Positions 45,727 through 63,396 of a stretch of DNA of 64,000 nt are shown here, in pieces. How positions within the stretch are numbered: position 1 is the first letter of the stretch; each line of letters opens with the position of its first letter. The notes under the pieces were generated by a model. The model ran no database searches. It was given only the letters and a program-made list of their open reading frames with translations, and was not told where the DNA came from. Made by a program: the position numbers and the translations under genes. Source of the stretch: Candidatus Eiseniibacteriota bacterium (GTDB lineage Bacteria; Eisenbacteria; RBG-16-71-46); NCBI GenBank assembly GCA_031364845.1, contig JANLWX010000065.1, forward strand, positions 39,665 to 103,664, written 5' to 3'.

Positions 45727-47021
45727 GCGCGCGCATCGGAGTGTTCGCGCTCGCGTGCGGCGCCGCGCTGGCGCTCGCGGCCGCGCCCACGGCGGCCGAA
45801 ACGGTGGCACTCGTCGGTGGCACCGTCCATCCGGTGAATGCTCCCGACATCGCGAACGGCTCCGTCGTGCTGCGCGACGGAATGATCGAAGCGGTCGGCG
45901 CGGGGCTCGCCGCGCCCGCGGGCGCGCGCGTCGTCTCGTGCGCGGGCAAGCATGTCTATCCCGGTCTGATCTCCGCGAACACGGTGCTGGGCCTCACCGA
46001 GATCGGCAGTGTGCGCGGCACCCACGACGACACGGAGATCGGCGTGGTCAACCCGAACATCCGCACCGAAGTGCAGGTGAATCCCGAGAGCGAGCTGATT
46101 CCGGTCGCGCGCATGGGCGGGATCACAAGTGCGCTCGTCATGCCGCGCGGTGGAACCATCGCCGGCACGCCGGCATTGATGCACCTCGACGGCTGGACGT
46201 ACGAAGACATGACCGTGCGCGCGCCGGTGGCGTTGTTCATCCAATGGCCGGGGATGACGGCGACCACGGACGATCAAAAGAAGACACGCGACCGCGCGGT
46301 CGCCGGTATCCGCGATGTGTTCGAGGAGGCGCGCGCGTACCTCGGAGCGAAAGCCGCCGAAGGCAGCACGGGTGTGCCGCGCCACGATGGCGACATGAAG
46401 TGGGATGCGATGGGCCGGGCGCTGCGCGGCGAGATCCCGGTGATGTTCCGCGCCGCGGGCCTCAATCAACTGCGCGCAGTGCTCGCGTTCGTCGACGAGA
46501 TGAAACTCGAGCGCGTCATCCTGCTCGACGGCTGGGACGCGTGGCAGATTCCGAACGAGATCCGCGCGCGCAACATCTCGGTGATCACGAGCGGATCGCT
46601 CTCCGCGCCCGCCCGGCGCAGCGAGCCCTATGACACACGCTACGCGCTGCCCGGACGTCTGTTCGCCGCGGGGATTCCATTCTGCATCGCCGATCCCGGG
46701 GGACGTGGCGATGCGATGAACACGCGCAATCTCTCGCAGCATGCGGCAATGGCGGCGGCGTTCGGACTTCCGCGCGAAGAGGCGTTGAAGGCGGTGACGC
46801 TCTATCCGGCGCAGATCCTCGGTGTGGCGGACAAGCTCGGGACGATCGAGCCCGGCAAGAACGCAGACCTGATCGTGACCGACGGCGACCCGCTCGAGAT
46901 CACGACTCACGTGGAGCAGGTGTGGATCGCCGGGCGTTCCATTCCGATGGAGAGCAGGCAGACGCGCTTGTTCCAGAAGTACGATGGGAAGCCGCGCGGG
47001 GCGAACGCGCGGGCGCGATAG
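45723..47021 (+). CDS. Secreted amidohydrolase-family protein (likely non-catalytic partner)
   Basis: GTGA overlap and signal peptide. 'YPGLISANT' lacks HxH. 'GTIEPGKNADL'. Confidence 0.82.
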   Translation: MSARIGVFALACGAALALAAAPTAAETVALVGGTVHPVNAPDIANGSVVLRDGMIEAVGAGLAAPAGARVVSCAGKHVYPGLISANTVLGLTEIGSVRGTHDDTEIGVVNPNIRTEVQVNPESELIPVARMGGITSALVMPRGGTIAGTPALMHLDGWTYEDMTVRAPVALFIQWPGMTATTDDQKKTRDRAVAGIRDVFEEARAYLGAKAAEGSTGVPRHDGDMKWDAMGRALRGEIPVMFRAAGLNQLRAVLAFVDEMKLERVILLDGWDAWQIPNEIRARNISVITSGSLSAPARRSEPYDTRYALPGRLFAAGIPFCIADPGGRGDAMNTRNLSQHAAMAAAFGLPREEALKAVTLYPAQILGVADKLGTIEPGKNADLIVTDGDPLEITTHVEQVWIAGRSIPMESRQTRLFQKYDGKPRGANARAR

Positions 47022-47042
47022 AGATTCTTCGCCCGCTCCCAA

Positions 47043-47078
47043 ACGCAACGGCGCGGGCATGAAGCCCGCGCCGTGCGT
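47043..47078. terminator. GC-rich hairpin between convergent genes
   Basis: ACGGCGCGGGC-ATGAA-GCCCGCGCCGT, a perfect 11-bp stem (47048-47074). Confidence 0.65.
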
Positions 47079-47119
47079 CTATCGATCGCCAGTTCGGATG
47101 CCGGCGATGTCGCTGCCGA

Positions 47120-47278
47120 TCAGCCGCCGATCTCACACGAGGTCGCGCAGCTTCCGCTGCACGCGCCGCAGCACCCCGGGGGACAGTTGTCCGCCGCATT
47201 CTGCGTGTCACCCGCGAGGGCGAGTGAGCCGAGCGACAGCAATCCGAACAGCAACGAGACCATCATGGTGCGCTTCAT
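47120..47278 (-). CDS. 52-aa secreted Cys-rich peptide
   Basis: AGGAG SD. MKRTMMVSLLFGLLSLGSLALA|GDTQNAADNCPPGCCGACSGSCATSCEIGG has a signal peptide and 6 Cys in a 30-aa mature part. Confidence 0.8.
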   Translation of the reverse strand: MKRTMMVSLLFGLLSLGSLALAGDTQNAADNCPPGCCGACSGSCATSCEIGG

Positions 47279-47368
47279 GTCGTGAACTCCTGTTTCGTGT
47301 GAACGATGGACCCCGCGGCATCGAAGCCGCGCCGGGTGTTCAGCAACGAGGTGCGAGTTCACATGAAG
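47273..47368 (-). promoter_or_regulatory. Anti-SD / start-codon-sequestering hairpin (candidate translational attenuator)
   Basis: On the mRNA, CUUCAUGUGAACUC (47368-47355) pairs with GAGUUC-acg-ACAUGAAG (47289-47273), covering part of the SD and the AUG of the peptide gene. Confidence 0.7.
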
Positions 47369-47855
47369 GCGGGGCACGGCCCAGCGGGGGCGCGTGGGGC
47401 GCGAGCAGCACCGGCGATTGGAAGACGGTCGTGATCGCGCGCGGCGCCGAGGCGGCGGGCGGCGGAACGACGAGCGGTGGAACGAGTGTCGCGAGCGCGG
47501 GCAGCGCGGCCGGGGGATCGATGTGAAGCGTTGACACCACGAGCGCGTCGACCGGAGGATGCACGCACCATGCGCGATCGCCGAACGGAAGCGGATCGGG
47601 ACTCGGATCGCAGGGCAGCGGACACGTAGCCGTTTTCTGCGTCGCGCAGGCGCCGCCGGAGTTCGTACCCGACATCATGCGCGCGCAGACAGGATCGCAC
47701 GCAGCGCCGGATTCGCAGGTGGTCGATTCGGTCGTGGCGCCCGCGACGAAGTCGGCCCACGAGAACGGGCACCATTCGACCGACGGGAGCGCCGTCCACA
47801 GCGCAAGAACGAGGGCGAGCGGCGCAACGCGCCGGGGGAGCCGACGAAGCATCAT
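47340..47855 (-). CDS. DUF2946/CutF/CruR-like leader protein with C-terminal RAPP arrest motif
   Basis: 171 aa: N-terminal basic/hydrophobic export signal, 10 Cys (two CxxxC), Pro-rich linker, 'APPLGRAPPS' near the C-terminus. Confidence 0.75.
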   Translation of the reverse strand: MMLRRLPRRVAPLALVLALWTALPSVEWCPFSWADFVAGATTESTTCESGAACDPVCARMMSGTNSGGACATQKTATCPLPCDPSPDPLPFGDRAWCVHPPVDALVVSTLHIDPPAALPALATLVPPLVVPPPAASAPRAITTVFQSPVLLAPHAPPLGRAPPSCELAPRC

Positions 47856-47971
47856 GCCGGGATTGTCGGCCCGACGTACTTGTGGACGTGTTCGGGAGCG
47901 GCAAAATATCGCGACCGCCCGGATTTCGTACCGGCCGCGAATGATGCGACACCTCACCAGGGCGGACCTCA

Positions 47972-49018
47972 ATGTCTGACGGACTCCCGGTTCGCCGATC
48001 GCTCGCGCTCGATGCGTTTCGCGGCTTCGTCATGGTCGTCCTCATCGCCGACGGCTTCGGGTTGCATGAGCTGGCGAAGTATCCAGCCTACGCGTGGCTC
48101 GCGAACCAGTGCGTGCACGCGGACTGGGAAGGTGCCACGTTCTTCGACCTGATCATGCCGGCCTTCCTGTTCATCGCGGGGGCCGCGATGCCGTTTGCGC
48201 TGGCGCGCCGCAAGGACCGATTGCGTCACGTGGCGATCCGTTCGCTCAAGCTGCTGGTGCTGAGCCAGCTGCTCGTGGCCATCATGGGCCGCAAGTTTCA
48301 CTTCCAGATGGTCAACGTGCTCGCGCAACTGGCCGTCACCTACTTCGCGACCTATCTCCTGTTGCAACTCGGAATCCGCGCTCAGGTGCTTGGCGCGCTA
48401 CTTCTTCTGGCGGGCCATGGCGCGCTCTTCCACCTGTTCCCGGGCCACGACGGAGCATTCTCCAGAACCGACAACGTCGGCGCCGTGATCGACCGATGGT
48501 GGCTGGGACGCAGCTATCCCGGTTACTACACGACGATCAACTTCATCAGCGCCATTCCGAGCACGCTGTTCGGAGCATGGGCGGGGTTGCTCGTCATGAC
48601 TGAACGAAGCCGCGGGCGCAAGGTCGGCATCCTGGCGTGTGCGGCGCTGGTCGCCTTCGCGCTGGCAATCGGGCTGTCGCCGTGGGTGCCGATCGTGAAG
48701 CGTCTGTGGACGCCGTCGTTCGCTTTGTATTCGACCGGCTGGGTGCTCGTGATGTTCACGGCATTCGTCGCGTTGTTCGACGATCGCGCATCACACAAGC
48801 TGGCGTTCCCGCTGGTCGTCATCGGGATGAATCCGATCCTGGTCTATTCGATCAGCCTGCTGCTGCAAGGGGCGATCGATCGCGCGCTCGCCGTGGTCAC
48901 GCACCGGTTCGAGTGGCTAGGTCCTCCTGCGCCGATCGTTCAAGGGCTGGCGGTGCTGATGATCATCTGGTTGCTGTGCCTGTGGCTCTATCGACGCAAG
49001 ATCTTTCTCAGGCTCTGA
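47972..49018 (+). CDS. HGSNAT/DUF5009-like membrane acyltransferase
   Basis: 'ALDAFRG', 'H..W.G.TF.DLI.P.FLFI.G', 'PIVKRLWT.SF', 'G.N.I..Y'. Confidence 0.85.
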   Translation: MSDGLPVRRSLALDAFRGFVMVVLIADGFGLHELAKYPAYAWLANQCVHADWEGATFFDLIMPAFLFIAGAAMPFALARRKDRLRHVAIRSLKLLVLSQLLVAIMGRKFHFQMVNVLAQLAVTYFATYLLLQLGIRAQVLGALLLLAGHGALFHLFPGHDGAFSRTDNVGAVIDRWWLGRSYPGYYTTINFISAIPSTLFGAWAGLLVMTERSRGRKVGILACAALVAFALAIGLSPWVPIVKRLWTPSFALYSTGWVLVMFTAFVALFDDRASHKLAFPLVVIGMNPILVYSISLLLQGAIDRALAVVTHRFEWLGPPAPIVQGLAVLMIIWLLCLWLYRRKIFLRL

Positions 49019-49091
49019 GCAGAGCGTCGCGGAACCTGCCGGGCGAAACGTCTGGCTCGCCGGCTGTGGAAAGCGCACTCGATCTGTCCGA

Positions 49092-50912
49092 TTACGGAAT
49101 GCGGATGACCCGCCGCGTGTTCTGCCCGCCGGGATGCGCGTACCGGATCAGATAGAGACCCGGACGCGCCTTCTCGCCGCGAACGAGACCGTTCCACTCC
49201 ACCTGATGCAGGCCGGCTGGCCAAGTGCCGCGCGCAGGAGTTGCGACGCTTCGGCCAAGAACGTCGAACACGTCGACTGCGATCGGGCCTGAGCGTGCGA
49301 GCGAGAACGCGACGCGAACCGGTCCGACCCCCGGGCTCGGTCCCACGGAGATCAATTCGAATCCGGGCTTCGCAATCGCATCGACCTTGATCTCGGAACC
49401 GATAACCGCGACGTCCGTGCCTTCACGCGCCATTAGCCGGTAACGGTACTCAATATCAGAGGCGGCGGAGCGGTCGAGTTCGACGATGGCGTCAGCTTCG
49501 ATCGACTGCTCGGTCACGGGCCGGATCCAGGATTCCCCTTCGCTGTTAGCCGCTCGCTCGAGCCACACATCGGATGCCGTTGAACCAGGTCCTAGCTTCC
49601 AGGCGATCCGAACGCCTGCGTGCGCACGCTCGGCTGTGAACCGAAGCACGGTTGTCGCCGTTGACCCACATCCAATGCCGAGAGCACCCACCTGTCCGCA
49701 CCCTGGCCAGTTCACGAGTGGAGAGTCCGACTGGAGATAATAATCGCCGCTGTCGGGGTCACAGAATTGGGGATCTACGGAGAATTCGGTTGCGAATAGT
49801 TCGCGATCAGCGGCTGGCCCGAAACCGTTCTCGAACCAATTGTTGCACGCAAATGTCGCACCTGGTGATACCTCCCAATCCACACCGTACCCACCGTTTC
49901 TGTAGCCGATATTGCCGATGCATTCGTCGCCATCATTGTAGTCGTCGACGTTGATGCCGCCGTAACCGTTGAACGCGACCGTGTTGTTCTTGATCTTGAC
50001 CCCGGGCGACGCGCCGGAGTACCCGATGCCGTAATAACGTGAACCCGTCACGACATTCCATTCGACTACAGGTCTGCTGGACATGATATAGATACCGTAC
50101 TCCGACCCGCTCACCGTGTTTCCAGTAATGAATATCCTGCCGTTCTCGAACTGCATTCCCCCTCTGCAATTGCGAATTACATTATTCGTGATCGTTTTCA
50201 AGTCATGGCCGGAGTCGTAAATCCCTACCTGTGCGCAGTTCTCGATCAAGTTGTTGGTGACGATTGAATTGTAGCTGTTGTCGAGCGTCACGCCACCAAT
50301 GGTTCCGCGAATCGTGTTCCCATCAATGAGAACGTTTTCGGAGAACGAACTTATGCCGTGGCCGGGGCCGACGACGCACCCGCGCACGATAAAGTAATCG
50401 GAGTCGGAAGTAATTCCTCCCACGAGATGGCACGAGTCCACGATGGCGGTCTCAGTGGCGTCGGTTCCCGAATGCTCACTGGTGCTGCACCGCAGCAGCC
50501 ATGACGAGACGACGGTTGAATTGATCCGCGGCATGATGCAGTCAGCGAACTTCAGACGATACGCCCCGACGATCAACAGGTTCGAAGTGAACTCGAGCCC
50601 GCGAAACTCATAGAGCAGGCTGCCGTCGCCGGTGAAATCAAGCCCGCCGATTTCCGGGGGGCCGCCCGCGTCGTCGGAAGCAGTCATCAGCGAGAACTGC
50701 TGCCGAACGACGAGTGTCTCCGGATAGGTCCCGGGCCTGACGACGATCGTGTCGACGACGGCATCGATCGCTTGCTGAATGGTGGGCGCTTGGTCGGGAA
50801 CGATCAACGTCGTGGCCTGTGCCGAGGGGGCGGAGGCCAAGGTAGCGGCGAGTAGGACGCTCAACCTCAGAACAGTCGTGCGCAACGCGGCGTAGCTCAC
50901 AGCGGCCTCCAT
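49092..50912 (-). CDS. Secreted right-handed beta-helix (NosD/pectin-lyase-like) protein with C-terminal FlgD-Ig/T9SS-like domain
   Basis: 'VPDQAPTIQQAID', repeated 'I.NN.I' rungs, 'DPQFC', C-terminal 'VDVFDVLGR.V......G.H.V.W.G...PGLYL'. Confidence 0.8.
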   Translation of the reverse strand: MEAAVSYAALRTTVLRLSVLLAATLASAPSAQATTLIVPDQAPTIQQAIDAVVDTIVVRPGTYPETLVVRQQFSLMTASDDAGGPPEIGGLDFTGDGSLLYEFRGLEFTSNLLIVGAYRLKFADCIMPRINSTVVSSWLLRCSTSEHSGTDATETAIVDSCHLVGGITSDSDYFIVRGCVVGPGHGISSFSENVLIDGNTIRGTIGGVTLDNSYNSIVTNNLIENCAQVGIYDSGHDLKTITNNVIRNCRGGMQFENGRIFITGNTVSGSEYGIYIMSSRPVVEWNVVTGSRYYGIGYSGASPGVKIKNNTVAFNGYGGINVDDYNDGDECIGNIGYRNGGYGVDWEVSPGATFACNNWFENGFGPAADRELFATEFSVDPQFCDPDSGDYYLQSDSPLVNWPGCGQVGALGIGCGSTATTVLRFTAERAHAGVRIAWKLGPGSTASDVWLERAANSEGESWIRPVTEQSIEADAIVELDRSAASDIEYRYRLMAREGTDVAVIGSEIKVDAIAKPGFELISVGPSPGVGPVRVAFSLARSGPIAVDVFDVLGRSVATPARGTWPAGLHQVEWNGLVRGEKARPGLYLIRYAHPGGQNTRRVIRIP

Positions 50913-51181
50913 TTGATCAGCTCACTCCCGGGGAGGCGGGGCTTCCGCATCGGACCCGAAGTTCAGTGAAATTCTAACACCGTACACAGGCGGCCAATCG
51001 CACGAATTCAGGGGGTTCGCCTGGTCGTTTGGGTACCGCTCACCCTCAAACGGCGGCCAAAACATCCTTAAGCAGCTGCGGGAAAGCACCCCATCTGTCG
51101 TATGATGCCCGGCTTCATCCCACCCCACGCATGGCGCGCGTCGCCACCGCCGTGCCTCTCCCTGAAAACGAAGGACGTCTC

Positions 51182-52273
51182 TTGAGTCTCAAGTGTGGAA
51201 TCGTTGGTCTTCCCAACGTCGGGAAGTCCACTTTGTTCAATGCGCTGACCAAGGCCGGTATCCCGGCGGCGAACTATCCGTTCTGTACGATCGAGCCGAA
51301 CGTGGGCATCGTCGAGGTTCCCGATGACCGCATGAAGCCGCTCGCCGAGATCGTCAAGCCGCAGCGTATGCAGCACGCGATCACCGAGTTCGTCGACATC
51401 GCGGGGCTGGTCGCGGGTGCGTCGCGCGGCGAAGGGCTCGGGAATCAGTTCCTCGCCAACATCCGCGAGACCGACGGCATCGTGAACGTCGTGCGCTGCT
51501 TCGAGAACGAGAACGTCGTCCACGTCGCGGGCAAGGTGAATCCGGTCTCCGACGTTCGCACGATCAACACCGAGCTGGCGCTCGCCGACATGAGCACGGT
51601 CGAAAAGGCGCAGTTGCGCCACGGCAAGACGGCGCGCGTAGGCGACAAGTCGGCGGCGAAGCTGCTGGCGCTGCTCACGCAGGTCGCGGCGCATCTCGAT
51701 CAAGGCTTGCCGGTGCGGCTGATGAAGCTCGATGCCGAGGAGCGGGCGCTGCTGGCGCCGCTGTGTCTGCTCACGCTCAAGCCTGCGCTCTACGTGGCGA
51801 ACGTGGCCGAGCATGGATTCGCGGACAACCCGATGCTCACGGAGTTGATCGAGTTCGCGGCCGAGGAAGGCGCTCCGGTCGTGCCGATCAGTGCGGCGCT
51901 CGAAGCAGAGATCGCGGGGCTCGAAGACGCGGACAAGCGCGACTTCCTCGAACACGCGGGGCTCGCGGAGCCGGGATTGAACCGGCTGATTCGCGCGGGC
52001 TATGAACTGCTCGGTCTTCAGACGTACTTCACCGCGGGCGTGAAGGAAGTGCGCGCCTGGACGATCCACAAGGGTGACACGGCACCGGTCGCGGCGGGCG
52101 TGATTCACAACGACTTCGAGAAGGGCTTCATCCGCGCGGAAGTGTTCTCGTACGACGACTTCATCAAGTACAAGGGCGAGCAGGCGGCGAAAGAAGCGGG
52201 GCGCATGCGCGTGGAGGGCAAGGAGTACGTCGTGCAGGATGGCGACGTGATGCACTTCCGATTCAGCGTGTAA
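51182..52273 (+). CDS. ychF: Redox-regulated ribosome-binding ATPase YchF
   Basis: '[19 protein letters not shown]', '[11 protein letters not shown]', 'DIAGLV.GAS.GEGLGN.FL', TGS domain. TTG start. Confidence 0.97.
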
Positions 52274-52316: not shown

Positions 52317-53465
52317 TCAGCTTGCGGTGCGCTCCACCACCATCGCGGCTCCCATACCGCCGCCCACGCACAGCGTCGCGAGCCCGTAGCGTCCGCCCGA
52401 ACGTGCGAGTTCGCGCAGCACCGTGCCGACCAGCCGCGCGCCGCTCGCGCCGAGCGGATGCCCGAGCGCGATCGCGCCGCCGTTCACGTTCGTGCGGTCT
52501 TCGGGCAGTCCGAGCTCGCGCGTCACCGCGACCACTTGTGATGCGAACGCTTCGTTCAGCTCGATGCGGTCGATGTCCGCGAGCGTGAGCCCCGCGCGCG
52601 CGAGCGCGGGCGGCACCGCCTCGACAGGGCCGATGCCCATGAACGCGGGATCGACACCCGCGACGGTATAGGCGACGAAGCGTCCGAGCGGGCGCAGGCC
52701 GTGGCGCTCAACGGCCTCCGACGACGCGACCAGCAACGCCGACGCGCCGTCGCTGGTGGGGCACGAATTGCCCGCCGTGACGGATCCATTCGCGGCGAAC
52801 GCGGGCTTGAGCGCGGCGAGTTTCTCGAGCGACGTATCCGGACGGATCGAGTCGTCCTCGATGGCCGGTTCCGCGTCACCGTCTGTCACGGGAACGATCT
52901 CATCCGCGAACACTCCGCGTGCGCGCGCGGCTGCCGCGCGCTGATGCGAGCGCAGAGCCCACGCATCCTGATCGGCGCGCGTCACGCCGTAACGCTTCGC
53001 GACGCGCTCGCCGGTTTCGCCCATCGTGATGTAGATGTCGGGCCGCCGGGCAAGCCAGTCGGGATTCGGCGAAGGATTCGCACCGCCGAGCGGGATGCGC
53101 GACATCGACTCCATGCCGCCGACCAGCACCATCGACGCCTCGCCGAGGCGCACCTTGGCGCATGCGATCGCCGTGGCTTCGAGGCTGCTCGCGCACAGGC
53201 GCGTGAGCGTCATTGCCGGAATCGAAAATGATAGCCCCGCACCGAGCGTAATCGCGCGCGCGACGTTGCGGCCCTGTTCGCCTTCGGGGTACGCGCAGCC
53301 GACGATCACTTCATCGAGATCCGCGGCCGAGGGCTGCAATGACGCCATAATACTGCGGAACAGGCCTGCGAGCAGGTCGTCCGCGCGCCGGTTCGCCAGC
53401 GCACCTTTGGTCGCGCGAGTGAACGGCGTGCGGCGCGCCGCGCAGATCCAGGCGGTCTCACTCAT
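52317..53465 (-). CDS. Thiolase (acetyl-CoA C-acyltransferase)
   Basis: 'RLCASS', 'GG.ESMS', 'ELNEAFA', '[14 protein letters not shown]', 'LCVGGGMG'. Confidence 0.93.
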
Positions 53466-53532: not shown

Positions 53533-55056
53533 TCACGACTCGCGCCGCAACTTCCCGCGATCCACTTTGCCGAGATGCGTGCGCGGCAGAGCGTCGACGA
53601 ACGTCACATCGCGCGGATGCTTGTAGGCCGCGAGCCGTTCGCGCACGAACGCGCGCAGTTCCTCGCCGAGGCCGTCGCGTGTCGCGCGCGCCACCACGAA
53701 CGCGATCGGCTTCATGAGTCCGTTGGCGTCGCTTGCGCCGATCACTGCGGCTTCCGCGACCTCCGGGTGTTCGAGTAGGCAGCTTTCGACTTCGGCTGGG
53801 GCGAGCCACTTGCCCGACACCTTCAACATCTCGTCGCCGCGGCCGTGGTAGGTGACGAAGCCGTCGGGGTCCATCTGGATCATGTCGCCCGACACGTACC
53901 ACTCGCCGCGGAATCCGGACTCGGTCTTCTCCATGTTCTGCCAGTAGGCGATCGCGCGCGCGCCGCCGCGCACCCACAGCCATCCGATCTCGCCGCGCGG
54001 CAACTCGGCGCCCGATTCGTCGCACACCTTCACTTCGAAGCCCGGTACGACCTGCCCGAGCGTTCCGGGATGTGCCGCGCCGGGACGGTTCGAGACGAAG
54101 ATGTGCCACATCTCGGCAGTGCCGAGGCCGTCGAGCAGATCCACACCGAACGTCTCGCGCCAGCGCCGGTCGAGTTCGACCGGTAACGCCTCGCCCGCGG
54201 AGGTGCACACGCGCAGCGACGCGAAGTCCTGCGCGGTGGCATCGTCGTGCGACACCATGCGGTTGATCATGGTCGGCACGTTGATCAACACCGTGGGCCG
54301 GTGGCGACCGATGCGCTCGAACAGCACGTCGGCGCTCGCGGGTTCCTTGAACAGCACCGTCGATGCGCCCGCCCGGAACGGGAAGAACAGGTTCGATCCG
54401 GTGGCGTATCCAAAATAGAGCTTGGGCACCGAGAGCGTGATGTCGTCTTCGCGATAGCCGATCACGCCCAGCGCGTAGCATTCGGTGGTGTAGGCGAACG
54501 CGCGATGGGTCTGAACGACCGCCTTGGGGCGGCCGGTGGTGCCGCCCGAGAACAACCAGATCGCCGCGTCGTCGCGATGGGAACGGAAGTTCTCGAACGC
54601 CGCGTCGTGCGAGGCGATCTCGCGCCCCCAGCCGTCGCCACCGGCGACGATCGTGTGCTTCACATGCGGGGCGTCGCACGCGGCGGCAAAGAACGGTGCG
54701 GCGTATTCGTGGTCGACGACCACCACGCGGGCGCGCGTGTATTCGAGCAGCCGCGCGATGTCGGCCTGCTCGAGCGCGGGATTCGCCATCACGACGACCG
54801 CGCCGAGCTTGAGCGTTCCGAACAATGCCGCGACGTAGTCGGCGCCGTCCTGAAGCGCCAGCAGCACGCGCTGCTCGGATTCGACGCCGCTCTTCGCGAG
54901 CAGGTTCGCGTAGCGGTTCGCGAGGCGCTGCATCTCGGCGTAGGTGTATGTGCCTTCGTCGGTGCGCACGGCGATACGATCGCCGCGGCCTTCGCGCACG
55001 CGATCGTCGAGGAAGTAATCCGCGATATTGAATTGTTCCGGCGGTTCGTACGTCAT
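53533..55056 (-). CDS. Benzoate/2-aminobenzoate-CoA ligase family
   Basis: 'FSGGTTGRPK', 'KLYFGYATG', 'SAGEALP', 'DGLGTAE..HIF', 'LPRT..GK'. Confidence 0.88.
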   Translation of the reverse strand: MTYEPPEQFNIADYFLDDRVREGRGDRIAVRTDEGTYTYAEMQRLANRYANLLAKSGVESEQRVLLALQDGADYVAALFGTLKLGAVVVMANPALEQADIARLLEYTRARVVVVDHEYAAPFFAAACDAPHVKHTIVAGGDGWGREIASHDAAFENFRSHRDDAAIWLFSGGTTGRPKAVVQTHRAFAYTTECYALGVIGYREDDITLSVPKLYFGYATGSNLFFPFRAGASTVLFKEPASADVLFERIGRHRPTVLINVPTMINRMVSHDDATAQDFASLRVCTSAGEALPVELDRRWRETFGVDLLDGLGTAEMWHIFVSNRPGAAHPGTLGQVVPGFEVKVCDESGAELPRGEIGWLWVRGGARAIAYWQNMEKTESGFRGEWYVSGDMIQMDPDGFVTYHGRGDEMLKVSGKWLAPAEVESCLLEHPEVAEAAVIGASDANGLMKPIAFVVARATRDGLGEELRAFVRERLAAYKHPRDVTFVDALPRTHLGKVDRGKLRRES

Positions 55057-55135: not shown

Positions 55136-55894
55136 TTGCTTCACGAGCTGGCGGAGATGACCTACGAGAATGTGCGCGATCTCAATCTCGCGCGCACCGT
55201 TGGCGTGTTGCCGGTCGGTGCGATCGAGGCGCATGGCCCGCATCTGCCGCTGGCGACCGATGTCGTGATCGCGCAGGCGATGGCGCGCGCGGGGGCTGCG
55301 GCGCTCGAAGCGCGCGGCATTCGCGCGGTGCTCCTGCCCGCGCTGCCTTACACCGCAGCACCATTTGCCGCGGGATTCGCGGGAACGTTGTCGATCGCGC
55401 CGCAGACCGTAACCGCGCTCATCGTCGATGTCGCGTCGGAACTCACGCGGCACGGGTTCGCGGCACTCGCGATCGCGAATGCGCATCTGGATCCGGCGCA
55501 TCTCGGCGCGCTCACGGCGGCGGTCGCGACGGCGTCCGAGCGGAAACTGCTTCCCGTCGTGTTCCCCGATCTCTCTCGCCGCCGCTGGGCGGAGCGGCTC
55601 ACCGAGGAATTCCGTACGGGCGCGTGTCACGCCGGTCGCTACGAAAGTTCGGTCGTGCTCGCCGAGCGTCCCGACCTCGTGCGTGAGCCGTTGCGTGTCG
55701 CGCTCGAACCGAACCCAGCGTCGTTGGTCACCGCGATTCGCGAAGGCGCTGCGACTTTCGAAGCCGCAGGCGGCCCGCGCGCCTACTTCGGGTGGCCCGC
55801 CGAAGCCTCGGCCGATGAAGGCCGCGCGACGATCGCATCACTCGGCGAGATCCTGGCCGACGCCGTCGCCGAAGCGCTGAAAGACAACGCGTGA
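55136..55894 (+). CDS. Creatininase-family amidohydrolase / deformylase
   Basis: 'LPVGAIEAHGPHLPLATD', 'F.GTLSI', 'NAH', 'HAG.YESS'. Confidence 0.88.
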   Translation: MLHELAEMTYENVRDLNLARTVGVLPVGAIEAHGPHLPLATDVVIAQAMARAGAAALEARGIRAVLLPALPYTAAPFAAGFAGTLSIAPQTVTALIVDVASELTRHGFAALAIANAHLDPAHLGALTAAVATASERKLLPVVFPDLSRRRWAERLTEEFRTGACHAGRYESSVVLAERPDLVREPLRVALEPNPASLVTAIREGAATFEAAGGPRAYFGWPAEASADEGRATIASLGEILADAVAEALKDNA

Positions 55895-57075
55895 GCGCGC
55901 CGATGCTCGCCGGCCGCCGCGCCGTCGTCACCGGTGGCGGGCGCGGAATCGGAAGCGCGATTGCCGCGGCACTCGCCGATGCGGGAGCGGCGGTCGTGGT
56001 CGCCGCGCGCTCGGAGAACGAGATCGAGCGGGTGGCGGGCGAACTGCGCGCGCGCGGCGCGCGCGCACACGCGGTCACGTGCGATGTGACCGACGAAGCG
56101 AGCGTGAGGCGGCTCGGCGAGCAGACGCGCGAGCATCTGGGCGGGGTCGATGTGCTCGTGAACAACGCCGGCGACGGCGCGGCAGCACCGCTCGCGAAGA
56201 TCTCGCTCGACGATTGGAACCGTATGCTCGCGGTCAACGCGACCGGCGCATTCCTGTGCGCGCGAGAGTTCGCGCCTTCGATGGCCGAAGCCGGCTACGG
56301 CCGCATCGTGAGCGTCGCCTCGGTCGCGGGGCTGGTCGGCGCGCGTTACGTGGCGCACTACACCGCAGCCAAGCACGCGGTGGTCGGCCTCACGCGCGCG
56401 CTCGCGGCCGAGTACGCGGGCACCGGTGTCACGGCGAACGTTGTGTGCCCGGCCTACGTCGACACTCCGATGACCGCACGCACCATCGCACAGGTGCAGG
56501 CGCGCACCAGGCGCACGCCCGAAGCGGCACTTGCGGCGGTGCTGGCGAGCGCGAGTCAGCGCCGGCTGGTGCAACCGAAGGAAGTCGCGGATCAGGTGCT
56601 GGCTCTGTGCGCGGGCGACGACACCGGCCAGGCGCTGGTGCTGAGCGGAGGAGGAACGCAGGACATGCCGTTCGAGATCGTGAACCCGCCCGAGCTGGGA
56701 GAACCGCGCGGCTGGAACAATGGGCTGCTGGCACCGGCCGGCGGCCGCATCCTGTTCATCGCGGGCCAGGCGGGATGGGAAACCGCGAACGAAGCGACAC
56801 CGCCGGGATTCGCGGATCAATTCGCGCGCGCGCTCGACAAGATTCTCGCGGTCGTGCAGGCGGCGGGCGGAACCGCGCAGGACGTCGCGCGCCTCACGCT
56901 CTATGTCACCGAACTGGATGCCTATCGTGCGGACCTCAAGAACCTCGGCCGCCTTTGGCGCGAGCGGTTCGGCACGTATTATCCGGCGATGGCGCTCGTC
57001 GAAGTGAAGGGGCTCGTGGATCGCGGGGCTCTGCTCGAGATCGAGGCCACCGCCGTGCTCGGAGGATCCCGTTGA
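55891..57075 (+). CDS. SDR oxidoreductase fused to a RidA-family domain
   Basis: SDR motifs 'TGGGRGIG', 'NNAG', 'YTAAKH'. RidA domain from 56665 ('LFIAGQ', 'YPAMALVEV..L...LEIEA'). Confidence 0.85.
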   Translation: MSAPMLAGRRAVVTGGGRGIGSAIAAALADAGAAVVVAARSENEIERVAGELRARGARAHAVTCDVTDEASVRRLGEQTREHLGGVDVLVNNAGDGAAAPLAKISLDDWNRMLAVNATGAFLCAREFAPSMAEAGYGRIVSVASVAGLVGARYVAHYTAAKHAVVGLTRALAAEYAGTGVTANVVCPAYVDTPMTARTIAQVQARTRRTPEAALAAVLASASQRRLVQPKEVADQVLALCAGDDTGQALVLSGGGTQDMPFEIVNPPELGEPRGWNNGLLAPAGGRILFIAGQAGWETANEATPPGFADQFARALDKILAVVQAAGGTAQDVARLTLYVTELDAYRADLKNLGRLWRERFGTYYPAMALVEVKGLVDRGALLEIEATAVLGGSR

Positions 57076-57878
57076 GCGTATCGATCCAGCCCCAGTCGTT
57101 CCTGTATGCGCTCGATGCCGCGACCGGCGTCGCCACCATCACGCTCAACCGCCCCGAGCGTTTGAATGCGCTCACGTTTCAGGTCTACGGCGAGCTGCGT
57201 GACACGTTCGCGGCACTCGACACCGAGCCCGGCGTGCGCGCGATCGTGATCACCGGTGCGGGGCGCGGGTTCTGTTCGGGCGGCGATGTCGAGGACATCA
57301 TCGGCGCGCTGTTCGGCCGCGACGCCGCGGGGCTGCTCGAGTTCACGCGCATGACCGTCGACCTCGTGCGCCAGATGCGCGCGTGCCGCAAGCCGGTGAT
57401 CGCCGCGTTGAACGGCACGGTCGCAGGCGCGGGTGCCGTGATCGCGACCGCGTGCGACATCCGGATCGCCGCACCGTCGGCCAAGATCGCGTTTTTGTTC
57501 GTGCGCGTCGGATTGTCGGGCGCCGACATGGGGGTGTCGTGGATGCTGCCGCGCATCGTGGGTCTCGGTGCCGCAACCGAGCTATTGATGACCGGTGACT
57601 TCATCGACGCGGCCCGCGCGCACGAGATCGGGCTCTACAATCGCGTCGTGCCGCAGGAGCAGGTGCTCGCCGAAGCGACCGCACTCGCCGTGCGTCTCGC
57701 GCAGGGTCCGCAGGCGGGACTTGCCGAGACCAAGCGCGCGCTCGATGCCGAAGCGTCGATGGATTTGGATCAGGCGCTCGAGTACGAAGCGGTGGTGCAG
57801 GCGAAGCTGATGGAGCATCCCGACTACCGCGAGGCATACGAAGCGTTCCGCGCCAAGCGGGCGCCGCGCTTCGCATGA
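57072..57878 (+). CDS. Enoyl-CoA hydratase family
   Basis: 'ITLNRPERLNAL', 'FCSGGD', 'ALNG..AGAG', 'GLSGADMG'. Confidence 0.92.
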   Translation: MSVSIQPQSFLYALDAATGVATITLNRPERLNALTFQVYGELRDTFAALDTEPGVRAIVITGAGRGFCSGGDVEDIIGALFGRDAAGLLEFTRMTVDLVRQMRACRKPVIAALNGTVAGAGAVIATACDIRIAAPSAKIAFLFVRVGLSGADMGVSWMLPRIVGLGAATELLMTGDFIDAARAHEIGLYNRVVPQEQVLAEATALAVRLAQGPQAGLAETKRALDAEASMDLDQALEYEAVVQAKLMEHPDYREAYEAFRAKRAPRFA

Positions 57879-59032
57879 ACGTCACACCCGACGCCTCGGC
57901 GATTTGCGCATTCCTCGACGAAGCGCACGTGGAGTTCGCCGCGGCGGTCGGTACCTGGGCCGCGCGCGATCTCGCACCGAAACCCGAGTCCGTGGACGAT
58001 GCGGCCGGACGCATCGAAGCGCGCGCTTTGCTCGCGACGATGGGCGCCGGCGGTTGGTTCGCCCCGATCGGCCGCGGCGACTGGCGCGCGTGCTGCCTCG
58101 CTCGCGAAGCGATCGCCGCGGCGTCGCCGCTCGCCGACGCGGTGTTCGCGCTCCAGGCGCTCGCCGTGGTTCCGCTCCAGCTCGGCGACAACGACGCGAT
58201 GCGCGCGCGCTGGCTCGACGATGCGATCGCGGGCCGCGCGATGGGCGCGTTCGCGATGACCGAACGCGAAGCCGGCACCGACGTCGCCGCCATGGTCACC
58301 ACCGCGCGCCGCGAGGGCGGCGACTACGTGCTCGACGGCCGCAAGGTGTTCATCTCGAACGCCGGCATCGCCGACTTCTACAACGTGTTCGCCACCACCG
58401 ATCCCGCGGCGGGCGGCAAGGGCATCGGGTGCTTCGTGGTGCCGGCGGACGCCAAAGGGTTTCGCTTCGAGCGGCCGTTCGTGCTGTCGTCGCCGCATCC
58501 GCTCGGCGAGATCGTGTTCGAATCGTGCCGCATTCCCGTAGCGAACCGGCTGGGCGCCGAAGGCAAGGGCTTTGCGCTCGGCCTGAAGACGCTCGACCGC
58601 CTGCGCCCGACGGTCGGTGCCGCCGCGTGCGGCATGGCGGCGCGCGCGCTGGCCGAGGCGCTCGCGCATGCGCGCTCCCGCCGTCAGTTCGGCAAGCCAC
58701 TCGCCGAGTTCCAGCTCGTGCAGGAGAAGCTCGCGCGCATGGCGATCGATCTCGATGCCGCGCGACTGCTGGTGTATCGCGCGGCGTGGCTCGCCGACAC
58801 CGGCACCGGGCGCAACACGATGGCCGCGGCGATGGCGAAGTCATTCGCGACCGAAGCCGCGCAGCGCATCGTGGACGACGCGGTCCAGGTGCTCGGCGGC
58901 AGCGGCGTGCTCGCCTCGCATCCGGTCGACCGGCTCTATCGTTCGGTGCGCGCACTGCGGATCTACGAAGGCACCACCGAGATCCAGCACCTCGTGATCG
59001 CGGCACAGTTGCTGGCGGAGAAGGACGCGTGA
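57875..59032 (+). CDS. Acyl-CoA dehydrogenase
   Basis: 'FAMTE..AGTD', 'G.K.FISN', 'R.QFG', 'Q.LGG.G', '[10 protein letters not shown]'. Confidence 0.92.
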
Positions 59033-59078
59033 GATCGAGTCGCGCCCCATTCGCGCACTGCGCCGCGCGGCCGATCGC

Positions 59079-61340
59079 ATGAAGGTCGCGTGCATCGGCG
59101 GCGGTCCCGCCGGGCTGTTCTTCGCACTGCTGCTCAAGCGCGACGATCCGACGCATGACGTCGTGGTTTACGAGCGCAACCGCGCCGACGACACGTTCGG
59201 CTTTGGCGTCGTGTTCTCCGACGCCCCAGAAGAGGCGCTCGCGAGCGCCGACCCCGAGACGATTGCCGCGATGGCGGCGCACTGCCATCGCTGGGACGAC
59301 ATCGAGATCCACTACCAGGGCGAGACGCTGACCTCGACCGGCCATGGTTTCTCGGGGCTCTCTCGCCGCACGCTGCTCGAATTGTTGTCGGGCCGATGCC
59401 GCGCCGCAGGCGCGAAGCTGTGCTTCGAGCACGAAGTGGGTGATCCCGCAGAATTGAAAGCTGACCTCGTGTTCGTCGCCGACGGCGTGAACTCTGCGGT
59501 ACGCGAGAAATATCGCGAACACTTCCAGCCCGAAGTCGACGTGCGCCCGAACCGCTTCGTGTGGCTCGGCACCACGCGTCCGTTTCCGGCGTTCACGTTC
59601 TATTTCAAGCCGAACGAGCACGGCCTGTGGCGGGTGCACGCGTATCAATACGAACCCGACCGCTCGACGTTCATCGTCGAAGCGCGCGAGAAGACGTGGC
59701 GCGCGGCGGGGCTCGAGCACGCGACCGAACAGGACACGATCACGTTCTGCGAGCGGTTGTTCGCCGAGGAACTCGAAGGCCACAAGCTGGTCTCCAACCG
59801 CTCGATCTGGCGCAGCTTTCCGACCATCCGCAATCGGTGCTGGCATCACGGCAACATCGTTCTTGCCGGAGATGCGGCGCACACCGCGCACTTCTCGGTC
59901 GGCTCGGGCACCAAGCTCGCGATGGAAGATGCGATCGCGCTGGCCGCGGCACTCAAGACCCATCGCGACATTCCAGCAGCGCTCGCCGCTTACGAGGCCG
60001 GGCGCCGTCCCGCCGTCGAGAGCCTGCAACGTGCGGCGCAAGCGAGCCTCCAGTGGTTCGAGGACACCGAGCGCTACATGCGGCTCGAGCCGCTGCAGTT
60101 TGCGTTCGCCCTGCTCACGCGCAGCATGCGCGTGACTCACGAGAACCTGCGCGTGCGCGATCCGGAGTTCGTCACTCGAGTCGATCGCTGGTTCGCGGAG
60201 CACGCCGCGCGTCAGGCGCATCCCGAGGCCCGCGCGGCAAACATTCCGGATCCCGCACCACCGCCGATGTTCACGCCGTTCCGATTGCGCGATCTCGTGC
60301 TTGCGAACCGCGTGGCCGTTTCGCCGATGTGCCAGTACCGCGCGATCGACGGCATGCCCGACGACTGGCACATGGTGCATCTCGGATCGCGCGCGATGGG
60401 CGGTGCGGGGCTCGTGTTCGCCGAGATGACCGATGTCAGTGCCGAGGCGCGGATCTCGCCCGGCTGCACCGGGCTCTACAAACCGGAGCACGTCGTGGGA
60501 TGGCGGCGCATCGTCGACTTCGTTCACGCGCAGTCCGCAGCGAAGATCGCAATCCAACTCGGACACGCGGGCCGCAAGGCGTCGACGCGACTGCCGTGGG
60601 AAGGGGAGAACGAACCGCTCACGCGCGGAAGCTGGCCGACGCTGGCACCCTCGCCCATTCCCTACTATCCGCACAGTCCGGTGCCGCGCGAGATGACTCG
60701 TGCCGACATGGAGCAGGCGATCGCGGACTACGTGCGCGCGGCGGGCTACGCGATCGAAGCGGGCTTCGATCTGCTCGAGATCCACATGGCGCACGGCTAT
60801 CTGCTGGCGACGTTCATCTCGCCGCTCACGAACCGGCGCACCGACGCCTACGGTGGCACGCTCGAGAACCGTATGCGCTTCCCGCTCGAGATCTTCGACG
60901 CGGTGCGCGCGGTGTGGCCCGCCGAAAAACCGATGTCGGTGCGCATCTCGGCCGTGGACTGGCTGCCGGGAGGGATGGGCCCCGAGGACGCGGTGGACGT
61001 CGCGCGGCTGCTGAAGGCACATGGCTGTGACATCATCGACGTTTCGGCAGGGCAGACGGTCGCCGATCAGCGGCCGGTGTATGGACGATTGTTCCAGACG
61101 CCGTTCGCCGATCGCATCCGCCACGAAGTCGGCATCTCGACGATGGCGGTCGGAAATATTTCTTCGTACTCCGACGTGAACACGATCCTCGCCGCGGGCC
61201 GCGCTGACGTGTGCCTGCTCGCGCGTGCGCATCTGTGGGATCCGTACTGGACCCGCCATGCGGCACACGAGCTGCGATATCCGCTGCCGTGGCCGGAGTC
61301 GTACGAATCGCTCAATCGTTACCGGCCGCGTTTCACCTAG
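59079..61340 (+). CDS. Anthraniloyl-CoA monooxygenase/reductase (salicylyl-CoA 5-hydroxylase type)
   Basis: FAD monooxygenase 'GGGPAG', '[10 protein letters not shown]', '[17 protein letters not shown]' fused to an OYE-like domain 'SPMCQY', 'HMAHGYL'. Confidence 0.92.
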
Positions 61341-61387
61341 TATCGTCGCGGTTGATCACCCGGCCGAACCCGACACGAGGTGCACCA

Positions 61388-62170
61388 ATGCCTGTGACTT
61401 ACTCCAGCTACCTCAAGATCGACGAACTGCTCGCACTCCAGCAGCCGCTCTCGGACGGACCCGAGCACGACGAGACGCTGTTCATCGTGATCCATCAGGT
61501 CTACGAGCTGTGGTTCAAACAGATGCTGCACGAGATCGACTACTTGAAGACGCTGCTGGTCGCCCACGACACCCCGCGCGCGCTGCACACCTTCAAACGA
61601 CTGCTCACGATTCTCAAGGTGACGGTGGCCCAGGTCGACATCCTGGAAACCATGACGCCGCTCGAGTTCCTTTCTTTTCGCGAACGCTTGGAATCGGGCA
61701 GCGGATTCCATTCGCATCAATTCCGTGAGTTCGAGTTCGTGCTCGGCGCGCGCAATGCCGCAGCACTCGATCGCTATCCGCTGGACAGTGACGCGCGCCG
61801 CCGCATCGAGCAGCGCATGAACGAGCCCACGCTGTGGGATGCGTTCCTGCGTTTCCTCGTGGGCTCGGGCCACGCCGTGCCGGCCGCGGCACTCGATCGC
61901 GACGTGAAGCTCCCGGTTGAAGAATCGCCCGCGCTGCATCCGCTGCTGCTCGACGTCTACCGTAACGATCCCGAGGCACGCACCGTGTGCGAGCGCATGG
62001 TCGATCTCGACGAAGGTGTCCAGGAGTGGCGCTACCGTCACGTGAAGATGGTGCAGCGCACGATCGGCACGCGCATGGGCACCGGCGGTTCGGACGGCGC
62101 GGCGTATCTGATGAAGACCCTCAATCGCCCCGCGTTCCCCGACCTGTGGGCGATCCGCGCGGAGCTATGA
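61388..62170 (+). CDS. kynA: Tryptophan 2,3-dioxygenase
   Basis: 'YSSYL', 'HDETLFIVIHQVYELWFK', 'SGF.S.QFR', 'WRYRH...V.R.IG...GTGGS.G..YL'. Confidence 0.95.
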   Translation: MPVTYSSYLKIDELLALQQPLSDGPEHDETLFIVIHQVYELWFKQMLHEIDYLKTLLVAHDTPRALHTFKRLLTILKVTVAQVDILETMTPLEFLSFRERLESGSGFHSHQFREFEFVLGARNAAALDRYPLDSDARRRIEQRMNEPTLWDAFLRFLVGSGHAVPAAALDRDVKLPVEESPALHPLLLDVYRNDPEARTVCERMVDLDEGVQEWRYRHVKMVQRTIGTRMGTGGSDGAAYLMKTLNRPAFPDLWAIRAEL

Positions 62171-63396
62171 GCTCGCCCCACACGCTCGAGTCGCTCGCGC
62201 GCACGCCGAACTCGCTGGCAGCGCACTACACGCGCTTTCGCGTGAGCGAGCGGCTGCTGCTCACCGGACACTCGCATCAGGCGTGGCCCGATGTCGCGCT
62301 CGAAGGCCAGCTTGAAACGTGGACCGACGCAGCGGCGCACGTCGACGACAAGTGGGAACGCGTCGCACAGATCGGCGAGCGGTTCCGGCGCGGCTTCGCC
62401 CGGCTGATCGGTGACGATGCCGACCGCATCGTGCCCGGCACCAACACGCATGAGCTGGTGATCCGCTTCCTGTCCGCGTTGCCGCTCGAGAGTCGTCCGC
62501 GGCTCGTCACGACGGACGGCGAGTTCCACACACTGCGGCGGCAGCTCGACCGGCTCGCGGAGACCCGACGCATCGAGCTGGTCAAGATCACCGCATGGCC
62601 CGCCGCGACGCTCGCCGAGCGCATCGCGGCTGCGGTCGACGATCGCACGGCCGCCGTCTTCGTTTCCTCGGTGTTGTTCGGCAATGCGCACATCGTGCCC
62701 GGCCTGAGGTCGGTGGCGGAAGCATGTCGCCGCGCCGGCGCCGAATTGATGGCCGACTCCTACCATCATCTGAACGTCGTCCCGTTCGATCTCGAGCGCG
62801 AAGGATTGGGATCGGCGTTCGTGATCGGCGGTGGCTACAAATACTGCCAGCTCGGCGAAGGCAACGCCTTCATGCGCATCCCGCCCGGGCGCGACGAGCT
62901 GTTTCCGATCGTGACCGGATGGTTCAGCGAGTTCGCTCGAATTGCCGAGCGCCCCGGAAGTTCGGTCCCCTACGGCGATGGCATCGCGCGCTGGGCCGGC
63001 GCGACCTACGACCCCACGAGCCACTATCGCGCCGTGCGCGTGTTCGACTTCTTTGAGGCGCAGGGACTCACGGCCACGTTTCTGCGCGACGTGAGCCAGC
63101 ATCAGGTCGGAAGGCTCGCCGAGCGCTTCGATGCGCTGGAACTGGACCCGGCCACGATCATACGCGATCGCCGCGTGCCGCTCACGCAGATCGCCGGCTT
63201 CCTGGCGCTCACGAGTCCGCGTGCGGCTGAGACCTCCGCGGCGCTGAAAGTGCGCGGCGTGTGGACCGACTACCGCGGCGAAAGCCTGCGGCTCGGCCCG
63301 GCGCCGTACCTGAGCGATGCGCAGCTCGATCGAGCGATCGAAGTGCTCGGCGAAGTCGTGCGCGGACTCGAAGCGGCGGAGCGAACGCGGCACTGA
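62167..63396 (+). CDS. kynU: Kynureninase
   Basis: PLP fold 'D.YH', 'GGGYKY', 'GWF', 'D.R...LRLGP'. ATGA overlap with kynA. Confidence 0.88.
   Translation: MSSPHTLESLARTPNSLAAHYTRFRVSERLLLTGHSHQAWPDVALEGQLETWTDAAAHVDDKWERVAQIGERFRRGFARLIGDDADRIVPGTNTHELVIRFLSALPLESRPRLVTTDGEFHTLRRQLDRLAETRRIELVKITAWPAATLAERIAAAVDDRTAAVFVSSVLFGNAHIVPGLRSVAEACRRAGAELMADSYHHLNVVPFDLEREGLGSAFVIGGGYKYCQLGEGNAFMRIPPGRDELFPIVTGWFSEFARIAERPGSSVPYGDGIARWAGATYDPTSHYRAVRVFDFFEAQGLTATFLRDVSQHQVGRLAERFDALELDPATIIRDRRVPLTQIAGFLALTSPRAAETSAALKVRGVWTDYRGESLRLGPAPYLSDAQLDRAIEVLGEVVRGLEAAERTRH

Follow-up and report, generated by a model that had tools for sequence, protein, structure and literature searches.

The gene at positions 55136..55894 (forward strand) of the window, the 64,000-nucleotide stretch of a Candidatus Eiseniibacteriota genome analysed here, encodes a creatininase-family metallo-amidohydrolase. 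We propose that this protein is an aryl-formamidase replacing KynB, and put the probability of this reading, judged from sequence and gene context, at about 0.7. In the classical order of tryptophan breakdown, N-formylkynurenine must lose its formyl group between tryptophan 2,3-dioxygenase (TDO, encoded by kynA) and kynureninase (KynU). In KynB-less bacteria, the predicted binuclear-metal amidohydrolase would deformylate an N-formyl-arylamine on the way from tryptophan to anthranilate, and the free anthranilate would pass to the adjacent CoA ligase and the abm ring-degradation enzymes. Family and fold, conserved metal ligands, a lost creatinine pocket, operon context and near mutual exclusion with KynB are shown by the data; deformylation as the reaction, and the choice of substrate, are inferred.

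The creatininase-family gene is the first of seven co-oriented genes (55136-63396), four junctions of which overlap by 4 nt while two have gaps of about 46 nt. Its ORF of 252 aa starts with TTG, with GGAGG 8 nt upstream, and has a GC3 of 0.78. Behind it on the forward strand follow an AbmB-like SDR fused to an AbmE-like RidA domain (55891..57075; PF00106 and PF01042; the gene caller favoured a start at 55903), an AbmC-like crotonase-family protein (57072..57878; NF006107/PRK08258, 369 bits, cut-off 330), an AbmD-like acyl-CoA dehydrogenase (57875..59032; PF00441, PF02770 and PF02771), an AbmA-like 2-aminobenzoyl-CoA monooxygenase/reductase (59079..61340; NF006101/PRK08255, 1139 bits, cut-off 1078), TDO (61388..62170; PF03301, 198 bits; TIGR03036, 268 bits, under its cut-off of 391) and a divergent kynureninase-like PLP enzyme, a candidate formylkynureninase (62167..63396). 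On the reverse strand, 53533..55056 (start from the gene caller) encodes a divergent benzoate/anthranilate-CoA ligase-family protein in the AbmG role (TIGR02262, 489 bits, cut-off 375), which among solved structures is closest to benzoate-CoA ligase 2v7b (402 bits) and anthranilate-CoA ligase 4wv3 (372 bits). A thiolase gene downstream of the ligase (52317..53465, reverse strand; TIGR01930, 458 bits) was matched in 2 of 82 loci and is probably joined to the cluster in some genomes only.

Abm roles were assigned from what we take to be the abm gene set of Azoarcus evansii (aerobic 2-aminobenzoyl-CoA route). The set is complete in the window: AbmA, the PRK08258 crotonase, acyl-CoA dehydrogenase, SDR, RidA and CoA ligase are all present, with PRK08255, PRK08258 and TIGR02262 over cut-off and the other members recognised by Pfam. 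Unlike in the A. evansii clusters, the abm genes here share their cluster with kynA, the creatininase-fold gene and a divergent kynU. The sequence-only reading had described this run as headed by a creatininase-family gene and as holding kynA, which is borne out, and as free of a KynB cyclase or alpha/beta-hydrolase, and none of the seven proteins matches either family. The kynU that it named is present as a kynureninase-like gene, divergent enough to give no TIGR01814 match at E<=1e-3. A promoter and terminator scan gave nothing above chance of use. Among related loci (gene caller, L003-L082; labels in L are our handles for loci, those in G for genomes), 9 have an SDR-RidA fusion like that of 55891-57075 and 64 encode RidA separately. 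The upstream ORFs (42769-52273) are unrelated to the finding; going by the ORFs, they presumably encode two amidohydrolase-like proteins (42769-47021), a membrane acyltransferase-like protein (47972-49018), a secreted repeat protein (49092-50912, reverse strand) and a YchF-like GTPase (51131-52273).

The product of 55136-55894 matches PF02633 over its whole length (profile positions 1-237 of 238; E 8.6e-51, 173 bits, cut-off 31.3). An AF2 model built from a 52-row alignment has a pLDDT of 97.6, and in Foldseek it reaches a TM of 0.76 to both 3lub and 1j2t. At E<=0.001 there are 26 matches, all ahead of the first non-creatininase one; those listed are creatininase-family chains (TM 0.70-0.76, 18-24% identity). 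Pseudomonas putida creatininase (1q3k, 1j2t, 3a6e-l) shares the fold at a TM of about 0.75 with only 22-24% identity. The protein matches neither KynB profile (PF04199, TIGR03035), nor does it resemble KynB in fold.

Residues E31, H33, D42, H117 and E170, together with H165, correspond to E34/H36/D45/H120/E183 and H178 of P. putida creatininase. All six are invariant in 52/52 alignment rows and kept in 75-76 of the 76 rows of a larger alignment. We take the roles of these metal ligands, of the catalytic histidine and of the creatinine-pocket residues (Y121, W154, W174, D175 and E177) to be those assigned in creatininase. The pocket has been lost: Y121 is replaced by L118, W154 by P144 and E177 by C164, which is itself invariant, while W174-D175 are deleted. 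Creatininase E122 corresponds to D119, a position occupied by D in 65 of the 76 rows, E in 10 and G in one, the paralog described below. With its ligands kept and its pocket lost, the protein appears to be a catalytically active metallo-amidohydrolase that works on something other than creatinine. If the mechanism resembles that of creatininase, a hydroxide bridging the metals (ligands E31, H33, D42, H117 and E170) would attack the formyl carbon and release formate, helped by D119 and H165; one enzyme may accept both N-formylkynurenine and N-formylanthranilate.

Several named members of the family were considered and rejected. The protein falls far short of creatininase proper (TIGR04448, 78.6 bits, cut-off 235), of MftE (TIGR03964, 101.5 bits, cut-off 172) and of IolN, the family's ring-opening hydrolase (NF041098, 29.7 bits, cut-off 245). 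MftE is of the same family and its model is the best-scoring NCBIfam model, but both it and IolN score far under cut-off and the labelled neighbours here are abm genes. ArfB (NF033501) gave no match at E<=0.01, so the ArfB/RibFA precedent invoked by the sequence-only reading finds no support in the sequence; BrbF of Sinorhizobium meliloti is the better one. BrbF (SMc02977), annotated as a creatininase, is described in the available text of PMC9478397 as deformylating AFRPP with release of formate and, according to its authors, is without sequence similarity to ArfB. Going by that described reaction, BrbF is a creatininase homologue that takes the formyl group off an N-formyl heteroaryl amine as formate; the same chemistry is proposed for the product of 55136-55894, although BrbF and archaeal ArfB act on a nucleotide substrate in the riboflavin pathway, unlike the enzyme proposed here. 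The 55136-55894 product belongs to a real, conserved and uncharacterised creatininase-family subfamily; an Atlas search returned unnamed creatininase clusters only, and a protein homologue search gave uninformative names and no gene context.

Two related genes were seen in passing. The window's own genome carries a second creatininase-family gene (G000:C210:685-1386, L002) of the NGHGG type, 31% identical over 114 aa, with a weak ArfB match (NF033501, E 0.0038) and an adjoining metallophosphoesterase gene. In G097, a creatininase domain lies at the C-terminus of a 789-aa protein (L154:8299-10668), whose first 530 residues have no Pfam match at E<=1e-5.

The kynB hole noted in the run extends to the whole genome (97.08% complete, 3.66% contaminated). 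PF04199 gave no match, a home-built cyclase HMM gave none at E<=10, and neither did tblastn with four KynB queries and with KMO and HAO queries. The idea of a missed kynB was set aside, the PF04199, cyclase HMM and four-query searches having found none. Weak matches to one alpha/beta-hydrolase family, PF20434, were seen elsewhere in the genome, five in all, so that a Ser-type formamidase is not strictly excluded. The genome also holds a second kynureninase-like gene (G000:C219:22155-23327; L277:3156-4328), located between a LOG-family gene and thyX-fdhD, with an SHSLG motif and a TIGR01814 score of 132 bits, under cut-off.

The gene's distribution was followed in 101 genomes of its own phylum (at least 80% complete), 121 of the phylum of G101, which includes Gemmatimonadales (L029), and 131 of the phylum of G102, which includes Myxococcaceae (L026), both at least 90% complete. 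The creatininase gene was found in 29, 36 and 12 of these genomes, respectively (36-73% identity); up to 20 candidates per genome were scored in one of the runs on these phyla, and up to six in a fourth phylum, with some misses possible. G097 has a 34%-identity match that was left out as belonging to another subfamily. TDO is present in 75 of the 77 carriers, against 161 of 353 genomes overall (38/101, 66/121 and 57/131). The two carriers without it are G112, where the gene sits on a 4.5-kb contig, and G328, in which two further TDO searches found no match; an IDO search of both gave no PF01231 match, with the control silent too. G328 holds the gene, AbmA and a kynureninase of the window's type (L141, L198, L206). 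AbmA was not matched in carriers G309, G227 and G112.

To KynB the gene has the opposite relation. The cyclase profile TIGR03035 was applied to all kynA-positive genomes except G000 (160 genomes). Its scores formed a continuum, and 61 cyclase domains were therefore placed in a tree, provisional in that only the quick search was completed. A single clade (33 rows, support 86) contains all treed genes adjacent to kynA or kynU and all treed rows of at least 170 bits; rows under 165 bits fall outside it, except that of G193, which adjoins kynA. Genes were accordingly counted as KynB-type at 170 bits or more or beside kynA, a rule set after the scores and tree had been seen and applied also to rows of at least 170 bits outside the tree; the split genes of G190 and G204 were counted. 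Of the 75 kynA-positive genomes that carry the creatininase gene, one has a KynB-type gene, against 45 of the 86 that do not carry it. Because the sampled genomes are related, these counts overstate independence and Fisher p-values overstate the contrast. The direction is the same in the own phylum (1/29 against 6/9), the G101 phylum (0/35 against 17/31) and the G102 phylum (0/11 against 22/46), and a plain cut at 150 bits or more gives 4/75 against 47/86. In the fourth phylum, that of G103 (Thermoanaerobaculia), 32 of 401 genomes carry the gene, and 1 of 31 carriers tested has a KynB-type gene (7 of 31 at the plain 150-bit cut). Only G041 and G691, the latter from the fourth phylum, have both. 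The anti-correlation expected by the sequence-only reading is thus seen in all three phyla; nor do clusters with the gene routinely carry kynB, as none of 125 loci has KynB within 10 kb. Each state may be a module inherited as a unit, the types of ligase and of kynureninase differing as well. Neither gene was found in 41 of the 86 kynA-positive genomes without the creatininase gene, so the deformylation step can be met otherwise. The counts include the unpublished genomes G015 and G198 (three-phylum tests) and G500 (among the 32/401), one row each, and no conclusion rests on them.

Many carriers hold other PF04199 cyclases, the activity of which is not known. Mid-scoring cyclases (134-163 bits) were rejected, provisionally, as KynB: most treed ones lie outside the clade, and they occur with and without the creatininase gene. 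In G353, TIGR03035 also failed to pick up a weak cyclase next to HAO. Several outside-clade cyclases have gluconate permease, 6PGD or glucose dehydrogenase genes nearby, and the neighbours 6PGD and glucose dehydrogenase suggest a sugar-acid cyclase subfamily, perhaps annotated as kynB. Four genomes (G147, G109, G174 and G155; L160-L163) have 674-677-aa ORFs with a C-terminal cyclase, and both of those scanned proved to be fusions of a GntP gluconate permease with a cyclase. In G007 (L091), a KynB over the TIGR03035 cut-off lies between the topoisomerase VI B and A genes, and myxobacterial KynB genes often adjoin a LigB-RidA fusion (L094, L098).

The cluster is kept across related loci. Inspection of 82 loci (the best 80 of 276 related loci, mostly from Ca. 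Eisenbacteria and Gemmatimonadota, plus those of the window and its paralog; many contigs are short) revealed the ligase in 79, SDR in 79, AbmA in 53, TDO in 37 and KynU in 36, an arrangement that is not chance. In a wider set of 125 loci (L003-L082, L139-L153 and L220-L249), the gene's direct neighbour is the ligase in 98, SDR in 87 and kynA in six; within 10 kb, the ligase is found in 103, AbmA in 65, TDO in 54 and a window-type KynU in 45. The gene is tied to the aryl-CoA ligase more than to kynA, and 17 of 59 loci with long flanks pair ligase and gene with no kynA within 10 kb. The six kynA-adjacent loci occupy three separate tree places; four, from related genomes of the Acidobacteriota sample, have the order kynU-kynA-gene (L244, L245, L247 and L248), and kynA adjoins the gene in two others. 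No kynA-kynU-gene trio free of ligase and abm genes occurs among the 125 loci: of nine loci with no ligase or abm match of at least 40%, only L248 has the trio, and it carries an abm-type reductase. KMO or HAO lies near the gene in 1 of the 125, and the gene is absent from the five KMO-branch kynA loci examined (L119, L120, L124, L127 and L128), even in the KynB-less G054 and G126. In three myxobacteria (G333, G283 and G318; L156-L158) that carry the creatininase gene elsewhere, a short and divergent TDO (29-32% identity to that of the window) adjoins a gene for a GcvT folate-binding domain; the formyl group might conceivably have a folate-linked fate.

Not all abm clusters contain the creatininase gene. 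AbmA was searched for in 80 of the 86 kynA-positive non-carriers (G198, G231, G247, G267, G288 and G313, none with KynB, were left out) and was found in 16, 14 of which have KynB; the other two, G199 and G322, have neither gene, and in G322 abmA stands alone. Only these 2 of the 35 non-carriers that also lack KynB have AbmA. Genomes running tryptophan into the abm route thus nearly always have either the creatininase gene or KynB. Four myxobacterial abm clusters (L179-L182) have kynA-kynU-kynB inside and no creatininase gene, in the order abmA, crotonase, dehydrogenase, ligase, thioesterase, ridA, a glutaryl-CoA-dehydrogenase-like gene, kynA, kynU and kynB. In one (G343, L179:16750-18636), KynU and KynB are fused in a single 628-aa ORF. 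Across the clusters without the gene (L179-L194), the crotonase, dehydrogenase and RidA are the same and an SDR is usual, and among 31 unlabelled neighbours scanned there the only recurring hydrolase is a 4HBT thioesterase. This thioesterase was rejected as a counterpart, since it also adjoins the creatininase gene (L236, L240). The ligases are 39-74% identical to the window's where the gene is present, against 32-38% in the clusters lacking it. Among plasmid records, 312 hold AbmA, with a best match there to the 55136-55894 protein of 36% identity; the gene is absent from two of these AbmA clusters that were inspected, and the plasmid search found no close relative of the protein in cultured organisms.

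The product of 62167-63396 is not a canonical kynureninase. Besides the missing TIGR01814 match, its PF22580 score is 23.5 bits (cut-off 27), and the motif GHSHQAWPD stands where kynureninases of kynB clusters have GNSLG. Its best solved relative is nonetheless Pseudomonas fluorescens kynureninase 1qz9 (E 1.5e-11), to which the YKY lysine, the GWF tryptophan and a C-terminal arginine align, with PLP-site residues kept, and its Atlas neighbours are named kynureninase. This GHSH type was found in all five distant myxobacterial carriers tested (35-51% identity) and in 12 of the 80 kynA-positive non-carriers, where KynB occurs in 1 of the 12, against 44 of the 68 others. A third type, with SHSLG, accompanies the creatininase gene in L235, L242 and L248 and adjoins KynB in G036 (L096). 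Pairs of TDO and GHSH kynureninase with no deformylase or abm genes nearby occur at L121, L123, L131, L133 and L135. The GHSH type also lies beside TDO in cultured organisms, namely on plasmids of Streptomyces goshikiensis/Mg1 and in Nonomuraea gerenzanensis and Vibrio aquimaris (L217-L219). Plasmid locus L217 (NZ_CP108579.1) lies inside an enediyne cluster and has TDO, GHSH kynureninase and a divergent member of the benzoate-CoA ligase family (45% identity to the window's ligase), but no creatininase gene. The GHSH kynureninase may supply an anthranilate or formylanthranilate moiety.

The claim that the gene fills the kynB hole is partly supported, by its near mutual exclusion with KynB; N-formylkynurenine is one candidate substrate, and the proposed aryl-formamidase could act at either of two points. 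Acting late, it would follow a GHSH kynureninase that first cleaves N-formylkynurenine to alanine and N-formylanthranilate, and would deformylate the latter for the ligase. We consider this possible. Some kynureninases cleave formylkynurenine, and activated N-acyl-anthranilates cyclise, with benzoxazinone formation; our literature searches gave no support on either point. The late position is favoured by the preference for ligase and SDR over kynA as direct neighbours, by the ligase-gene pairs with no kynA nearby, by the near absence of the KMO/HAO branch, which needs kynurenine itself, and by a GHSH motif that accompanies the gene's clusters, as GNSLG does the kynB clusters, and avoids KynB even where the gene is missing. 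TDO and GHSH kynureninase pairs persisting with no deformylase or abm genes point the same way, as they would still yield alanine, but such remnants could also come from block deletion of the abm half. Against it stand the gene's use with the SHSLG kynureninase, a type found beside KynB, the frequent absence of any known formamidase among kynA genomes, and locus L217, where ligase, TDO and GHSH kynureninase do without the gene. Acting early, as a true kynurenine formamidase between KynA and KynU, the enzyme would explain the kynA-adjacent loci at three tree places, the pairing with two kynureninase types and the near mutual exclusion with KynB; the lack of any ligase-free and abm-free kynA-kynU-gene cluster and of the gene at KMO-branch loci, two of them in KynB-less genomes, leaves this order somewhat doubtful. 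We rate the two orders nearly alike and slightly favour the later step: since the gene follows ligase and abm genes rather than kynA and is accompanied by a distinct, KynB-free kynureninase, deformylation after KynU fits as well or slightly better. The corresponding reversed route, with a GHSH formylkynureninase, a creatininase-fold N-formylanthranilate deformylase and no kynurenine intermediate, is put forward only tentatively, and a formylated CoA ester as the substrate is very improbable.

The sequence-only reading had also offered hydrolysis of an amide later in the anthraniloyl-CoA route. A lineage-specific hydrolase of the downstream abm pathway might act on the C-N bond of 2-amino-5-oxo-cyclohexene-carbonyl-CoA, the AbmA product, or be an IolN-like ring-opening C-C hydrolase, the exclusion of KynB then reflecting shared ancestry. 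The tight link of the gene to ligase and abm genes agrees with this, as do its operon with a glutaryl-CoA-dehydrogenase-like gene in four myxobacteria where AbmA stands alone, its presence in G328 with no detectable TDO, and the ring-opening hydrolase within the family, weakly matched as it is. The alternative is weakened because abm clusters that lack the gene share the downstream set and show no substitute hydrolase that recurs, the thioesterase being found next to the gene too; the AbmA plasmids and the TDO of nearly all carriers also count against it, and we judge it improbable. Less probable still is an accessory role, such as a broad N-acyl-anthranilate amidase that scavenges substrates from outside, or damage control, with deformylation left to an unlinked hydrolase or spontaneous, a non-enzymatic step being invoked in the available text of PMC7448278. 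The many kynA genomes with neither gene, the weak alpha/beta-hydrolase matches in the own genome and the two carriers with no TDO match would suit such a role; so few KynB-less non-carriers having AbmA, and full-route genomes nearly always holding one of the two genes, would not. That either gene is nearly always present in full-route genomes, and that the abm route works without the creatininase gene, favours a deformylase over a ring hydrolase, though the two states also differ in ligase type.

As an aryl-formamidase, the protein would parallel KynB in reaction and not in descent. KynB has the cyclase fold with a binuclear zinc site, and aryl-formamidases are known with this fold and, in eukaryotes, with a serine-hydrolase fold, according to the available text of PMC4243253. 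KynB (PF04199, TIGR03035) and the creatininase-fold protein are unrelated in sequence and fold, yet both belong to binuclear-metal amidase chemistry, share a predicted reaction class (EC 3.5.1.9), occupy the same slot beside kynA in a few loci and are complementary in distribution. KynB also serves genomes of the KMO branch, which the creatininase-fold gene approaches in a single locus. A literature search, covering few subscription journals and little older biochemistry, found no link of the creatininase family to kynurenine or formylanthranilate deformylation. If the proposal is correct, a creatininase-fold aryl-formamidase would be a further independent solution besides the two known folds, and a large subfamily now named creatinine amidohydrolase would be re-annotated in Eisenbacteria, Gemmatimonadota, Myxococcota and Acidobacteriota. 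A gap in the pathway would thereby be closed in bacteria that are abundant and mostly uncultured. If deformylation follows KynU, these bacteria would break down tryptophan in a kynurenine-free order, and the divergent kynureninase family would gain a function.
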